Positions 3,001 through 19,067 of a stretch of DNA of 19,067 nt are shown here, in pieces (position 1 is the stretch's first letter; each line of letters opens with the position of its first letter). Source of the stretch: Candidatus Firestoneibacteriota bacterium (GTDB lineage Bacteria; Oederibacteriota; D2-FULL-39-29; JBDRBU01); assembly GCA_043822305.1 (NCBI GenBank), contig JBDRBU010000052.1, positions 1 through 19,067 of the forward strand, written 5' to 3'. A program made the position numbers.

Positions 3001-6000
3001 TAGATAAGTTAGTTTCTTTAGAACTTTTAGAGAGAGTGAGAAATGAAGAAGATAGAAGATTAGTCATAGTAAGTATTACAGAAAAAGGCAAGAGGTTAGT
3101 AAGGATGTCCCAGGAAAGAAGAATAGAATCATTCAAATGGTGGTTAGAAAAATTAAGTTTAAAAGAGCAGATGGAATTAGTTGCAACTCTTGAGAAATTG
3201 AATGAGATTTTAGAGAGGATAAAAAAAATAGAAAGAGAAGAAAAATTAGCAAGAAAGATATAAAAATGTATGACTATGGAGAATGTGAAATTTAGGTTTT
3301 TAGATGAGGTGTGAGATGAAAAACAGTAAAAACATACAAATCAATTTTTTAAATCAAAACACTCCAACAAACAAGACAGAAAAAACCGTGGCAGATGTTT
3401 TTAGAGCAGCAGGACAAATAATGTATAATTATTATACTCTAGTATTAAAAAAAGATCCTAAAATTTTTAAATCTAAAAGAAAGCGGACAATTAAAATGTT
3501 AAAATGAAAAACACTTATTATAGTGGAGATTATTTAAAATTTTTAAAAATATTAGATAAACATAAAGTGGACTATTTAATTATTGGTGGATATGCAACAA
3601 TGCTTTACACAAAAATACCAAGGGGTACTAAAGATATGGATACATGGATTCGTCAAACAGAGAAAAATGCGAAGAATATTAGTGAGGCCATAAAAGAATT
3701 TGCTGGTAAAGAAATACCAATAGAAATCCTTTTGAAGGAAAATCAAAGAATTGAGATTAAAAGTGAAACATTTAAAATAGAAATATGGACATCACAAGAA
3801 ATAATAAAATTTGAACAGGCATGGGATGAAAAGAAAACAGAAAAACTCGGAGAAATTACATTAAAGGTAATATCAAAGAATCATTTAATCAAACTGAAAA
3901 AGCATTTCAATCGGCCTCAAGACAGGCTAGATTTATCTTTGTTAGAAGAGGAGTAACATTAGAATTATGATTCTGATTATACCGAAGGGATATAACAAAA
4001 TCTTAAAGAAATAAAAGGAGGCGGTATGAGTGCGATACTATTAGATGGAGAAAGTTTAGCAAGAAAAATTAAAGAAGGGTTGAAAAAAGAAATAGAAGAT
4101 TTTAAGTCCAAAGGAAAATTGTTAACTTTAGTTGCTATTCAGGTAGGAGAAAATCCAGCTTCGCGAGTTTATGTTAACCAGCAGAAAAAAGCGTGTGAAG
4201 AGATGGGATTAGTTTATAGTTTAAAAGAACTACCAGCAACTACAACTGAATTAGAACTTATAAATGTAGTAGAAAGTTTAAATAAAGATGTTTTTGTAAC
4301 GGGGATAATACTTCAAATGCCATTACCACAAAACATGAATCCAAAAAATGTGCAGGTTAAAATTTCTCCAGAAAAAGATGTAGAAGGACTTAATCCATAT
4401 AATATAGGATTACTTGTTTACGGTAAACAAAAAGTTGCACCCTGCACGGCCATGGGAGCCGTAGAACTTTTAAAAAGTAGTGGAGTTGAATTAAAAGGAA
4501 AAGAAGTTGTAATAGTAGGGCATAGTGAGATTGTAGGAAAACCTATAACTTTGCTTATGCTTCAATCACTTTTGGAATCTCCAACTCCTACAATATGTCA
4601 CATCGCAACTAAAGACCTGTCATTTCATACAAAAAGAGCAGATATAGTTTTTGTTGGTGTAGGAAAGCCGGGTTTAATAAAAGGTGATATGTTAAAAGAA
4701 GGTTCAATAGTTATTGATATAGGGATAAATAGAATACCTGTGTTGAACGAAAAGGGTGAAAAAATAATAGATGAAAAATCAGGGAAGCCTAAAATGAAAA
4801 CAGTAGGTGATGTTGAATTTGAAAAAGCGAAAGAAATTTGTTCTTATATTTCACCTGTGCCGGGTGGAGTTGGTCCACTTACAGTAACCATGCTTATTAA
4901 AAATACAGTAGAGTGTGCCAAGTGGCAGGGATGAATATAATTACTGATTGCGAATTTCGGATTACGGATTAAAAGGATATTTATGCCGGGAGTAAAGATT
5001 GCGGTGAGTGGTAAAGGAGGGGTAGGCAAGACAACAATATCTTCGCTTTTATCACTTGAGTTTTCAAAGAAGGGGTATAGAGTTCTGGGTGTAGATTGTG
5101 ACCCAAATTCTAATTTAGGTAATTATTTAGGGATAAAAGAAGAAATAAAGCCAATAATTGAGATGCGGTCTTTGATAGAAGAAAGGATGGAAACAAAATT
5201 AGATAGTGTCGGAAATTTTTTTAAATTAAATCCAAAAGTAGATGATATTCCTGACAAATTTTCTAAGAGTATAGATGGAATTAAAGTAATTTCTATGGGG
5301 ACAATAAAAAAAGGCGGAACAGGTTGTGCTTGTCCAGAGAATACTTTTATAAAGTCTTTAGTTAGCCATCTTATTCTACATCGAGATGAAGTTGTGATTA
5401 TGGATATGGAAGCTGGATTGGAACATTTTGGCCGGGGAATGGCTGAAGGGGTTGATTTATTAATTATTGTCGTAGAGCCATCGATGGCCAGTATAGAAAC
5501 GGCCAGAAAGATTAAAAAATTAGCAAAAGATATAAAAATAAAAAAAGTTTTTGTAATAATAAATAAAATAAAAAACGAAAAAGAAAAAGATTATATTTTG
5601 AAATATTTCAATAAGGAAGAAATTTTAGGTGAATTATTTGTAGAAGACAAAATTCGCAATGATTCACTAAATGCTAATTTTCCAGTAAGATTAGGCAAAG
5701 AGAACATAAAAAGGTTTGAAGCAATTGTTTGTGGTTTGTAATAAGGACAACCCCCTAACCCCCTTTATTAAGGGGGAATTAAAAATTAGAGGGCTTTACG
5801 GATTATCTTATGTCAATGACTATAGCCATATCAGGTAAGGGTGGGACAGGCAAGACAACAATAGCAGGGTTGCTTGTTAAATATTTAAAATCTTTAAACA
5901 AGAAAAATATTTTAGTCATTGATGCTGACCCTAATTCTAATTTACACAGTGTGTTAGGGATTAAATTAGAAAAAACCATAGGAGATATTATAGAAGAGAT

Positions 6001-18000: not shown

Positions 18001-19067
18001 AACTTCTTTAGGTGTTTCTGATTTAATATTAGAAGTTGATAAAGGAGATTTTGTTTCTAATTTATCTGATTTAGTTCAAATTAGAAGATTAGCTTTAAAG
18101 AAAACTTATAGACCTTTAGGTTATCCTGTATTAGCAAAAGTTTTAAATACTTCTTCTTATGATGAATTGTTTCAGGTCTCAACCTATATTTGTAAATATG
18201 CAAGTATAGTTATTCTTTCTGGTATGGAATTATGGGAACATTTATCGCTTCTAACTTTAAGACAAAATATTTATACTGACCCTCAAAAACCAATTCAAGT
18301 AGAATCCAAAATATATGATATAGGAGCAGTTTCAGATAATTCACCGGTTTTAGTTACTACTAATTTTTCTTTAACATATTCTTTGGTATCAGGAGAAGTA
18401 GAAGCATCTCGTATTCCAAGTTATATAATTGTTATCAATACCGAGGGAATATCTGTTTTAACTGCCTGGGCAGCAGATAAGTTTAATGCAGAGGTTATTA
18501 CAAAATACTTAAAAGAATCCGGTATTGATGGCAAAATTAAACATAAAAAAGTAATTATACCTGGTGGTGTTGCTGTAATCAGTGGAAAGTTACAGGAACT
18601 TTCCGGCTGGGAAGTTTTAGTAGGAACAAGGGAAGCAACAGGAATACCAGCGTTTTTGAAAGGATTAAAAAATTAACCTCTTAACATTATACCGCTATGG
18701 CGAACCGATATGTAGCAGGAATTGGTTGGGGGAACTGCAACATTGATTGAAACTGATAATGGAGATGTTTACAACCCCCAGATAGCCGTAGATACAAATG
18801 GAAATGGGATTGCGGTTTGGTGTCAGTATGATGGGACGAGGGATAACATTTGGGCGTACCGATATGTAGTAGGAACTGGTTGGGGAACTGCAGCATTGAT
18901 TGAAGCTGATAATGGAGATGTTTACAAGGTTCTTCAGGTTCTATTGTAGAGATGTAATAGGATAGGATGGATCTTTGAAATAGAAAGTATCTGTTAAATC
19001 CTGTATAATATAAATAAAAACATATTATACGGAGGAAAATGACAGATGCTTAACAAGGATTATGTAA

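Follow-up and report, generated by a model that had tools for sequence, protein, structure and literature searches.

A Wood-Ljungdahl pathway and a headless complex I in a draft Candidatus Firestoneibacteriota genome with no detected hydrogenase, Rnf or Ech

The genome of a Candidatus Firestoneibacteriota bacterium encodes a complete Wood-Ljungdahl pathway without hydrogenase, Rnf or Ech, as a preliminary description of this DNA had claimed, and the claim is supported in a draft that is 97% complete and has gaps. The pathway genes are real and native to the genome, and many of them lie in the window, by which the whole stretch analysed is meant (contig JBDRBU010000052.1, here C52, 19,067 nucleotides). 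The preliminary description overlooked a complete 11-subunit complex I without an NADH head. The best explanation, which has roughly an even chance of being right, is that the organism is a small anaerobic heterotrophic homoacetogen, in which the Wood-Ljungdahl pathway is an electron sink replacing H2 production.

The acetyl-CoA synthase locus and its Bfu module

The gene content given earlier for C52 (folD-cooC-cooS-acsB-cooF-hydCBA'-acsC) is borne out by family profiles. Between 4026 and 18676 the open reading frames follow in the order folD, two genes for CooC-type ATPases, a TumE-type toxin-antitoxin pair, cooS, a csgG-like gene, a Yip1-like gene, acsB, cooF, a nuoE-like gene, a nuoF-like gene, a gene for a 260-aa nuoG/HydA N-terminal protein, and acsC. 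The genes at 6636..7276 are a probable toxin-antitoxin insertion. The features are as follows.

4026..4934, + strand: folD, methylene-THF dehydrogenase/cyclohydrolase (Pfam THF_DHG_CYH)
4983..5741, + strand: CooC/AcsF-type nickel-insertion ATPase 1 (CbiA/ParA family; homologues adjoin cooS/acsB in related loci; named CooC by context)
5810..6580, + strand: CooC/AcsF-type ATPase 2 (CbiA/ParA family; homologues adjoin cooS/acsB in related loci)
6636..7276, + strand: two small overlapping genes, the first without a family, the second a TumE-family toxin (PF20126, E 1.2e-11)
7289..9196, + strand: cooS/acsA, Ni-CO dehydrogenase (TIGR01702, 720 bits, cut-off 478)
9320..11254, + strand: envelope genes of CsgG-like and Yip1-like type, interrupting the cluster and not part of the pathway (Pfam)
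11325..13514, + strand: acsB, acetyl-CoA synthase (NF040764, 1045 bits, cut-off 800)
13525..14046, + strand: cooF, Fe-S wire with four clusters, long-tailed as in Bfu-linked operons (Fer4_11; 47-55% to CooF of Bfu-linked loci)
14066..14521, + strand: bfuC, NuoE/HydC-like (PF01257)
14508..16358, + strand: bfuB, NuoF/HydB-like (best PDB match 7T2R chain B, 824 bits; residue alignment)
16355..17137, + strand: bfuA, WorA type (best PDB match 9MQX chain A, E 5e-45)
17345..18676, + strand: acsC, corrinoid Fe-S protein large subunit (NF003195, 585 bits, cut-off 306)
18699..18927, + strand: remnant of a 153-nt-repeat gene (repeat families D6 and D12; 88-96% matches to C75)
18928..19067, no strand assigned: left end of an insertion sequence with many copies (at least 12 contig ends carry the identical end)

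CODH, ACS and the corrinoid Fe-S protein (CoFeSP) are full length, with their ligands kept. The B-, C- and D-cluster ligands of CooS are all there by residue comparison, and AcsB retains the A-cluster cysteines described before as intact (Cys 507, 510, 519, 529, 596 and 598). The acsE-acsD-RACo genes reported on C75 are found as acsE-acsD-acsV. The components of the bacterial Wood-Ljungdahl pathway are all encoded (AcsB with its cysteines, Ni-CODH with its ligands, AcsC, AcsD, AcsE and AcsV), and so are those of the methyl branch (formate dehydrogenase, Fhs, FolD and MetVF). The 3' end of the remnant at 18699..18927 is a target-site duplication of 9 bp made by the insertion sequence, and this duplication pairs C52 with C75 only, the next-best pairing being 2 bp. 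By this result C52 and C75, the latter with acsV-acsD-acsE, are one locus split by the insertion sequence.

C52 as contamination is rejected, because its tetranucleotide composition is typical (rank 30 of 79), its folD is native and its insertion-sequence ends are the genome's own. This folD is the only one of the genome, as stated earlier (a single tblastn match), and its product is 78-82% identical to FolD from three order relatives. The earlier counts of AcsB are reproduced (none of the 11 order relatives, 5 of the 87 other genomes of the phylum), and AcsB is 69% identical to that of a sister-order genome, G017. Orthologues in G017 share 63-69% identity (Acs proteins), about 70% (FdnG) and 72-73% (NuoD, pyrophosphatase), as vertical descent predicts. 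AcsB of the genome and of G017 are grouped with two outside sequences in a tree, which is a quick tree only and does not resolve a sister relation. Truncated genes are found at 1093-2486 of C52, and a promoter scan is uninformative (51 sites against 59 expected).

The genes described before as hydCBA do lack the H-cluster domain, but their identity is recast: by their residues they are assigned to a BfuABC bifurcating module of the predicted CodhABCSF type, inside the ACS operon. BfuB has the architecture of a bifurcating subunit, with an N-terminal [2Fe-2S] cluster, an FMN site, B2 ligands including His and two C-terminal [4Fe-4S] clusters. Clusters B1-B5 with a His-ligated B2 are found together with BfuC, with Thr at the variable B2 position, the clusters being defined as in the available text of PMC9304861. 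BfuA has clusters A1, A2 and A4 and a C-terminal four-Cys site, without A3 and without an H-cluster, and a 12-nt in-frame deletion at 16786/16787 removes one A4-cluster cysteine. Among the best 120 BfuA homologues, A3 is present in none and the C-terminal motif in all 120; the A4 cysteine is kept in 119, the sole loss being the copy studied. The type 2 layout (A1, A2 and A4, no A3) is likewise found in 119/120, and in the studied copy minus one A4 ligand. A broken hydrogenase is rejected, because the 120 homologues have the same short form. That Bfu heads complex I in the canonical way is rejected as well, as we infer from the lack of the His-ligated A3/N5 cluster. Nor is Bfu simply a general substitute for Rnf, because RnfD is present in four of the five other genomes with ACS-linked Bfu.

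CooF is predicted to bind BfuA. The complex prediction scores 0.76 against 0.00 for the best control, at least 94% of contacts recur between runs and partner pLDDT is at least 82; the mark is reached by 116/157 solved pairs and 2/215 mismatched pairs. This pass perhaps reflects likeness only, because a similar complex is already solved (9MQX). The cysteine deleted from bfuA is one that, in the model, ligates the cluster turned towards CooF. The Bfu module lies between acsB and acsC here, and adjoins acsB in records labelled Clostridia, Latescibacterota and Anaerolineae. A CGES variant is found at the NuoF glutamate position that discriminates NADH from NADPH, which we take to be no more than a hint of NADP use.

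Hydrogenase searches, complex I and formate dehydrogenases

The earlier searches are reproduced: the [FeFe] domain is absent here and present in 11/11 order relatives, RnfD is found in 0/13 class genomes, the only match to a [NiFe] large subunit is NuoD, below cut-off, and Mo/W oxidoreductases occur in 0/11 order relatives. Searches of the draft genome give no matches for HydA, HydF, HydG, HypA-E or RnfA/D/E/G; nor is there an H-cluster domain, as in HydABC of [FeFe]-hydrogenases, or the large subunit of a group 4 [NiFe] enzyme with its Ni cysteines, or a set of Hyp maturases. G017 is likewise without hydrogenases and shares both formate dehydrogenases with the genome studied (G000); its HycE-like complex is rejected as an Ech, since it is without Ni cysteines. 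The pattern is therefore better read as loss in the two sister families than as a peculiarity of the genome. The gene rex does head the fdnG operon on C7, as described, but only as its C-terminal half, which an insertion sequence interrupts where the contig ends.

Complex I is represented by NuoA, B, C, D, H, I, J, K, L, M and N. The NCBIfam cut-off is passed by Nuo B, C, D, H, I, K, L, M and N; A and J are best-matched below it. Alignment to E. coli NuoCD shows that NuoD keeps the His, His, Tyr and Asp residues that we take to form the quinone site, and has no Ni cysteines. Complex I is found in 13/13 class genomes and NuoA in 95/99 phylum genomes, which indicates that complex I predates the use proposed for it here. 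A MenA-like protein and a polyprenyl synthase are encoded, and MenB/C/D/E, MqnA/D and a clear MenG are not found with classical and futalosine menaquinone queries, so that the quinone supply is unproven. The A. woodii-type RnfC2-MetV-MetF reported before is confirmed, more exactly as MetV/RnfC-MetV-MetF with RnfC fused to a second MetV domain, encoded on C121 in an operon that ends in nuoA.

The genome encodes two formate dehydrogenases and Fhs, as claimed. One of these dehydrogenases is predicted to be periplasmic and membrane-anchored, which had been overlooked: FdnG is Tat-type (RK in place of RR in its signal) and is accompanied by an Fe-S subunit like HybA/HmcB, an anchor of 10 helices like HybB/HmcC and a porin-like gene. 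This tungsten/molybdenum enzyme has its own maturation cluster. The cytoplasmic Fdh-Bfu carries its pterin domain and BfuA part as a fusion (type 1) and has a Cys at its metal site. HdrABC-MvhD is present as described, but the cluster in full is hdrCBA-mvhD with three Flx-type genes and fhs on C103; metVF on C121 is not clustered with hdr, as a Moorella type IV MTHFR would be. The methyltransferase set behind the term methyl-group-driven also exists, but this reading is weakened, because the set is class-wide: URO-D-type methyltransferases are found in 13/13 class genomes, 5 here and 4-39 in the other twelve. Most relatives that lack the pathway have a larger set than this genome. The corrinoid protein, MT2 and RACo could serve as a split methionine synthase, because a stand-alone homocysteine methyltransferase is encoded.

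Central metabolism and the use of the pathway

Genes are present for glycolysis, pyruvate:ferredoxin oxidoreductase, pyruvate dehydrogenase, Pta-Ack, NfnAB and Flx-Hdr, and for a H+-pyrophosphatase as well as an ATP synthase of the F type. By bookkeeping, the formation of three acetate from one hexose can be balanced by soluble enzymes only, via Nfn or partial use of pyruvate dehydrogenase, and gives 4 ATP per hexose. Formate or CO gives 0 ATP with soluble enzymes alone, and the soluble CO balance rested on a CO2/CO shuttle, without which CO is unbalanced. The earlier term formate/CO-driven is therefore not implied by the parts listed, and use of formate or CO would need complex I and a quinol sink. 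The simplest use of the pathway is as an electron sink for sugar fermentation, which requires none of the missing enzymes.

In the proposed homoacetogen, sugars would be converted to acetyl-CoA, NADH and reduced ferredoxin, and CO2 would be reduced to formate directly with NADH and ferredoxin, so that no H2 cycling would be required. Formate would be reduced to methyl-THF with NAD(P)H, and CO2 to CO through CooF wired to BfuABC. ATP would come chiefly from substrate-level phosphorylation. Complex I would be an inherited, accessory ferredoxin:quinone pump working on scavenged naphthoquinone, and would permit co-use of formate, CO or methyl groups. The carbonyl branch and the formate dehydrogenases would be ancestral in the class and lost in the two hydrogen-producing families. 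In favour of this explanation, terminal reductases are not found (cytochrome bd in 0/5 genomes; NrfA, DmsC and cytochrome c maturation without matches in the genome), and AMP-forming acetyl-CoA synthetase, ActP and pyruvate formate-lyase have no match. Several observations tell against it: complex I, a periplasmic formate dehydrogenase with a maturation cluster and a CO-type Bfu would be costly in an organism that only ferments sugars, and sugar uptake seems modest (one carbohydrate ABC transporter; PTS without a match to one query). The ligand loss in bfuA, the ring-synthesis genes not found and the AcsB tree, in which G017 is not resolved as sister, also belong here. The direction of the pathway is unproven, being read from the genome alone, and the oxidative direction fits equally, Schut et al. 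proposing Codh-Bfu for CO oxidation (available text of PMC9304861).

It is possible, but unlikely, that the organism is a C1 acetogen or methylotroph with complex I as the only coupling site, quinone-linked to methylene-THF reductase. On formate or CO, electrons would unlikely but conceivably pass from ferredoxin through complex I to quinol, and quinol with NADH would reduce methylene-THF; on methyl groups, with the same low probability, methyl-THF would reduce quinone and complex I would be driven backwards to ferredoxin, which is the role of Rnf in Acetobacterium. The metV, metF and nuoA genes are adjacent and co-directional in all nine order genomes with sequence upstream of nuoA, against 0/20 loci fetched outside the order, and here and in a relative, G006, nuoBCDHI is followed by a methyl-THF methyltransferase gene and folC. 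This adjacency is, however, one inherited event, before which nuoA lay near the pyrophosphatase gene, so that it may be a rearrangement accident. The reductase here is moreover of the RnfC type, which in A. woodii is reportedly soluble and NADH-dependent, and FocA is without a match in the genome. With a complex I-MTHFR link, conversion of CO to acetate balances exactly at 0.5 ATP per acetate, only with CODH-linked Bfu, and methyl-group use becomes feasible, here and in hydrogen-producing relatives; the calculation sets 4 H+ for each complex I turnover and for each ATP, and omits Flx-Hdr and Etf, by which the same gaps could be filled. An equal circuit is proposed for Moorella thermoacetica, but transfer from quinol to methylene-THF is uphill by 24 kJ/mol (available text of PMC13040438). 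It is doubtful that this is an acetogen without hydrogenase, Rnf and Ech living on CO, formate or methyl groups by a headless complex I coupled to MTHFR, with CODH/ACS-Bfu giving the NADH:ferredoxin ratio needed, and no less doubtful that the order-wide metV/rnfC-metV-metF-nuoA operon is the trace of such a link.

A syntrophic formate exporter is similarly improbable. The pathway would run oxidatively (acetate, CO or methyl groups to CO2) and ferredoxin would feed complex I. Quinol would be re-oxidised by the reversed periplasmic formate dehydrogenase, formate being the electron vent that replaces H2, and complex I with this dehydrogenase would be Ech-like, a part with as little likelihood as the first. 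The Tat-type FdnG with its HybA/HmcB-like subunit, HybB/HmcC-like anchor and porin-like gene fits this arrangement, except that the signal has RK, not RR. Formate dehydrogenases and hydrogenase absence coincide in G000 and G017, Codh-Bfu suits low-CO oxidation, and a loop cost of 2 H+ would yield additional ATP in the bookkeeping. A comparable loop is discussed for Thermacetogenium phaeum (PMC8578096). Against export, acetate permease, ActP and AMP-forming acetyl-CoA synthetase have no match in the genome, and without MenG the quinone would be demethylmenaquinone, which has a higher potential, so that CO2 reduction from quinol would be too costly for a net gain.

It is very unlikely that the absences are assembly or binning artefacts, or that a decaying pathway is kept only for biosynthesis or CO detoxification: the draft has 125 contigs, 81 of 250 contig ends lack a shared-repeat link (17 of these, on contigs otherwise tied in, have no match elsewhere), one gap could hide a block such as that of about 15 kb from hydF to hydG in G006, rex is cut at a contig end, and many insertion sequences, the bfuA lesion and the truncated genes at 1093-2486 would fit decay, but the genome is 96.8% complete and 2% contaminated, the hydrogenase, maturase and Rnf genes named above are all without matches, G017 independently shows the same set, and C52 is native with full-length CODH, ACS and CoFeSP.

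Comparison with known systems

Reviews hold that Rnf or Ech is present in all acetogens studied (PMC8578096). A headless complex I dependent on ferredoxin is only recently proposed as a third respiratory enzyme, in Moorella (available text of PMC13040438), where the test is confounded by Ech-type and hydrogenase systems; neither is found in the present lineage. The shortened complex I is the sole candidate for an electron-driven pump in the genome, which makes the genome a natural test of the proposed third energy-saving route for acetogens. The genome alone does not break the rule, because a sugar-fed acetogen needs no such pump. The lineage offers expressible targets for asking whether CODH is wired to the Bfu module and whether MTHFR is tied to an ion pump.

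As far as the available text of Rosenbaum et al. 2026 (PMC13040438) describes it, Moorella thermoacetica shares with the genome the Wood-Ljungdahl pathway, the lack of Rnf, a headless NqoA-D/H-N complex I, a periplasmic formate dehydrogenase, Nfn, HdrABC-MvhD and MetVF, and adds Fdh-Ech, hydrogenases, EtfABCX, cytochrome b and an Hdr-linked type IV MTHFR. In contrast, the genome has no Fdh-Ech and no hydrogenases, its MTHFR is of the RnfC type, its Hdr is accompanied by Flx-type genes, and quinone ring synthesis is not found. A. woodii, a heterotrophic and methylotrophic acetogen, has an RnfC2-MetV-MetF type reductase. It depends on Rnf, HydABC and HDCR, whereas in the genome studied RnfC and a second MetV domain form one fusion, and nuoA is the last gene of the operon. 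Type I Acetothermia MAGs resemble the genome in having the pathway and a near-complete Nuo without Rnf or Ech, but have an Mvh [NiFe] hydrogenase and respiration with nitrate, nitrite and oxygen (available text of PMC9586279). Nuo, Bfu and bifurcation are not mentioned in PMC13056359.

The module itself shares with Codh-Bfu/CodhABCSF (excerpts of PMC9304861 and PMC12318220), which is predicted and never purified, and with the solved analogue WorABCSL (PDB 9MQX) the BfuBC core with B2 ligands, a BfuA without A3 and with the C-terminal four-Cys finger, a CooF/WorS-like wire, and CooS. The published Codh-Bfu comprises 4 sequences, all Firmicutes, and acetyl-CoA synthase is unmentioned in the available text, although Supplementary Table 1 (1558 enzymes) may list ACS-linked members (PMC9304861); here the module lies between acsB and acsC, with one A4 ligand deleted. 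Inoue et al. 2019 had already tied COG1034/1894/1905 to CODH clusters of the Wood-Ljungdahl group, with neither a bifurcating assignment nor a mechanism in the available text (PMC6344411). HylABC-FdhF2 of Clostridium acidurici (available text of PMC5861303) is, like the enzyme here, an H2-free NAD- and ferredoxin-dependent formate dehydrogenase, but differs from it in that here pterin domain and BfuA part are one chain (type 1), with a Cys as metal-site residue.

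The acs locus and its assembly context

The window encodes FolD, two CooC-type ATPases, CooS, AcsB, CooF, three NuoE/F/G-like proteins and AcsC. AcsB, CooS and AcsC score above their curated cut-offs in a profile search, and the metal ligands of acetyl-CoA synthase (ACS) and CO dehydrogenase (CODH) are present. The Wood-Ljungdahl genes that the preliminary description assigned to this contig are real and correctly located. The cluster is interrupted by a toxin-antitoxin pair and by two envelope genes. The acsV-acsD-acsE genes are located on contig C75. The window terminates in the left end of an insertion sequence present in multiple copies, and C75 in its right end; a 9-bp target-site duplication makes these contigs a unique pair (next best, 2 bp), such a partner being found for 7 of 14 left ends. 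This join agrees with the gene order of the sister-order genome G017, in which acsV directly follows acsC.

The contig belongs to the genome under study. It ranks 30th of 79 large contigs by tetranucleotide distance, its folD is the sole copy in the genome (its product shares 78-82% identity with the FolD proteins of three order relatives), and its insertion-sequence ends are also found on contigs that carry genes for ATP synthase and complex I. Completeness of the genome is 96.8%, and 169 of its 250 contig ends lie within shared repeats or overlaps. Both ends lack links in 29 small contigs (141 kb), and one end in 23. Of 21 RpoB matches, three come from named records, all of them Candidatus Firestonebacteria (60-64%). 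Judged from sequence, this phylum label is likely, but not certain. In a search by this name, acetogenesis is not the subject of any title or abstract opening.

Insertion sequences or repeats of at least ten families cause most of the assembly breaks, and target-site duplications could scaffold the genome. At window positions 1093-2486, the tails of a truncated FGGY-family sugar kinase gene and a truncated hydrolase-like ORF overlap, and both are probably pseudogenes. A short G/C hairpin repeat, present at 5742-5809 and 10235-10306, is scattered over many contigs. Contig C59, small and unlinked at both ends, carries archaeal-looking genes and is possible contamination. Contig C39 carries a CRISPR-like array with cas-type genes (L110:12646-20000; type I-C by eye).

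Probable hydrogenase absence and the Bfu module

The [FeFe] hydrogenase domain is matched in 11 of 11 order relatives, and in neither the genome under study nor G017. HydG, HypA-E and RnfA/D/E/G are without match in the genome under study, RnfD is found in none of 13 class genomes, and the sole match of the [NiFe] search is NuoD. HydF exceeds the cut-off in three of five genomes tested, neither of these two among them. The absence of hydrogenase and Rnf, as claimed previously, is likely real. A hydrogenase block could be hidden in a single assembly gap, and rex is truncated where its contig ends, but on the uvrD side the former block is replaced mid-contig and G017 has the same pattern. The hydrogenase cluster of the relative G006 contains a HydB-NfnB/GltD-like fusion (L076:11020-14238). 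Ehr-like membrane complexes, with a HycE-like subunit without nickel cysteines, are present in G017 (L072:9024-16223), where the complex converges on acsB, and in G012 (L075:7660-14553); the genome under study has none.

The NuoE/F/G-like genes are probably bfuCBA of the bifurcating BfuABC family. BfuB of the window has every Bfu-defining cluster, B2 ligands included, and BfuA is nearest to WorA of the solved WorABCSL complex (PDB 9MQX). All of the best 120 BfuA homologues lack the A3 cluster and have a C-terminal four-cysteine finger. According to PMC12318220, a CooF-like subunit of WorABCSL passes electrons to cluster A4, and the authors of that paper name the unpurified CO analogue CodhABCSF. 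The predicted CooF-BfuA complex scores 0.76 (best control, 0.00), with contacts on the finger, tail and A4 region, at least 94% of which agree between runs, and a partner pLDDT of at least 82; the mark is attained by 116 of 157 solved pairs and 2 of 215 mismatched pairs. Since a similar complex is already solved (9MQX), this model score is a sign of likeness and not of binding.

The bfu genes adjoin acsB in 5 of 49 related acsB loci. The cooF-to-acsB interval, spanned in 17 loci, contains a flavoprotein of ~430 aa in 13, which we take by eye to be FNOR-like, bfuCBA in 3, and neither in 1. Thus, Bfu takes the place of the NAD-linked protein that partners CooF. However, a 12-nt deletion in bfuA of the window removes one A4 ligand, the sole such copy among homologues; either a lesion or a fault in the assembly may account for it. 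NuoEFG-like genes beside CODHs of the Wood-Ljungdahl type were noted already by Inoue et al. (PMC6344411).

Complex I and the class core

The genes listed in the preliminary description are real, but it missed an 11-subunit complex I without the NADH head (headless), and its interpretation, an acetogen driven by formate, CO or methyl groups, is incomplete. The nuo genes are located as follows.

nuoA: contig C121
nuoBCDHI: contig C102
nuoJKL: contig C114
nuoMN: contig C32

NuoD keeps the quinone-site residues and lacks the nickel cysteines. Headless complex I of this kind, MvhD/FlxD and URO-D-type methyltransferases are each present in 13 of 13 class genomes (5 methyltransferases in the genome under study, 4-39 in others), MetF in 5 of 5 tested and FolD in 4 of 5, so that the methyl branch, Flx-Hdr and complex I form the class core. 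Beyond this core, the genome under study and G017 have CODH/ACS and formate dehydrogenases, and the other 11 have [FeFe] hydrogenases. The Acs proteins of the two are 63-69% identical, not far from the values for NuoD and pyrophosphatase (72-73%). In a quick AcsB tree (40 of 54 candidate rows, partial rows dropped), they fall into a four-row clade (98%), not resolved as sisters. A history in which the two sister families lost CODH/ACS and formate dehydrogenases is the simpler one, though unproven.

Wherever an order genome has sequence upstream of nuoA (9 of 9), metV, metF and nuoA lie side by side; this leaves out one contig that ends too early and two genomes yielding no nuoA. In 20 loci outside the order, drawn from the 30 best-scoring loci only, nuoB follows nuoA in 18 and nuoA is beside metF in none. 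In the genome under study and G006, nuoI is followed by genes for methyl-THF methyltransferase and folC. The metV-metF-nuoA adjacency represents a single event in evolution and could be fortuitous. No link of metF or methylene-THF reductase (MTHFR) to nuoA or headless complex I is described in titles or abstract openings of the literature searched.

One formate dehydrogenase consists of FdnG, whose signal is twin-arginine-like, a HybA/HmcB-like subunit and a HybB/HmcC-like anchor, grouped with FdhE, FdhD, a TupA-like binding protein, MoaA and TatA. The second, a NuoE-NuoF-FdhA unit, is cytoplasmic, and the gene after it encodes an ADP-forming acyl-CoA ligase. The genome also encodes H+-pyrophosphatase, F-type ATP synthase, an NfnAB-like pair, AOR, Pta-Ack, POR, PDH and glycolytic enzymes, among which phosphoglucose isomerase is not identified. 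A MenA-like prenyltransferase (30% to its G017 counterpart) is present; quinone ring synthesis and MenG are not found.

The ATP synthase c subunit (L098:1336-1716, contig C78) has a long charged C-terminal extension, as in 5 of 5 class genomes checked, and its ion-binding motif, Q...E-S-L-x-x-Y, is compatible with both Na+ and H+ coupling. The URO-D-type methyltransferase families reach 39 per genome (G006-G017), in fermenters without acetyl-CoA synthase. A GcvT-serine hydroxymethyltransferase fusion is encoded on contig C6 (L116:6444-9089), with the P and H genes of glycine cleavage located on C50, and a divergent second Fhs-like protein on C24 (L207:402-2584) beside a cyclodeaminase-domain (Fch-like) gene. 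An AcsC-domain protein with a small ferredoxin, a pair presumably resembling the hgcAB mercury methylation genes, is present in G012 (L158:403-2070), G006 (contig C27) and G017 (contig C27), without such a match in the genome under study.

Energy conservation and comparison with known systems

Bookkeeping rests on assumed stoichiometries and omits Flx-Hdr and Etf. Conversion of hexose to three acetate is balanced by soluble enzymes, with 4 ATP, and therefore sugar-fed acetogenesis requires none of the missing enzymes. A heterotrophic homoacetogen with an accessory complex I is the best reading, with roughly even odds of being right. Conversion of four formate to acetate is balanced with 0 ATP, and CO or methyl groups are unbalanced unless a further link is added, so that C1 growth would depend on complex I and a putative quinol sink. 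Once complex I and a quinone-linked MTHFR are included, formate or CO yields 0.5 ATP per acetate, but CO is balanced only given CODH-linked Bfu. Such coupling of complex I to MTHFR is rather unlikely, and syntrophic formate export is doubtful to the same degree. Artefact or decay, to which the bfuA deletion might belong, is the least probable reading.

No closer case of an acetogen with complex I but neither Rnf nor Ech is found in the literature searched, which covers few subscription papers. All acetogens analysed are said to have Rnf or Ech (PMC8578096), and bathyarchaeial Hfo is a true hydrogenase (PMC7886697). Hydrogenases are undetected in deep-sea Chloroflexi, but these have Rnf (PMC5736913), for which the genome under study has no match. 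Wood-Ljungdahl genomes with Nuo and without Rnf or Ech are reported, but have respiration and hydrogenase (PMC9586279), whereas no hydrogenase is found here. For Moorella, headless complex I has been put forward as a third respiratory enzyme (PMC13040438).
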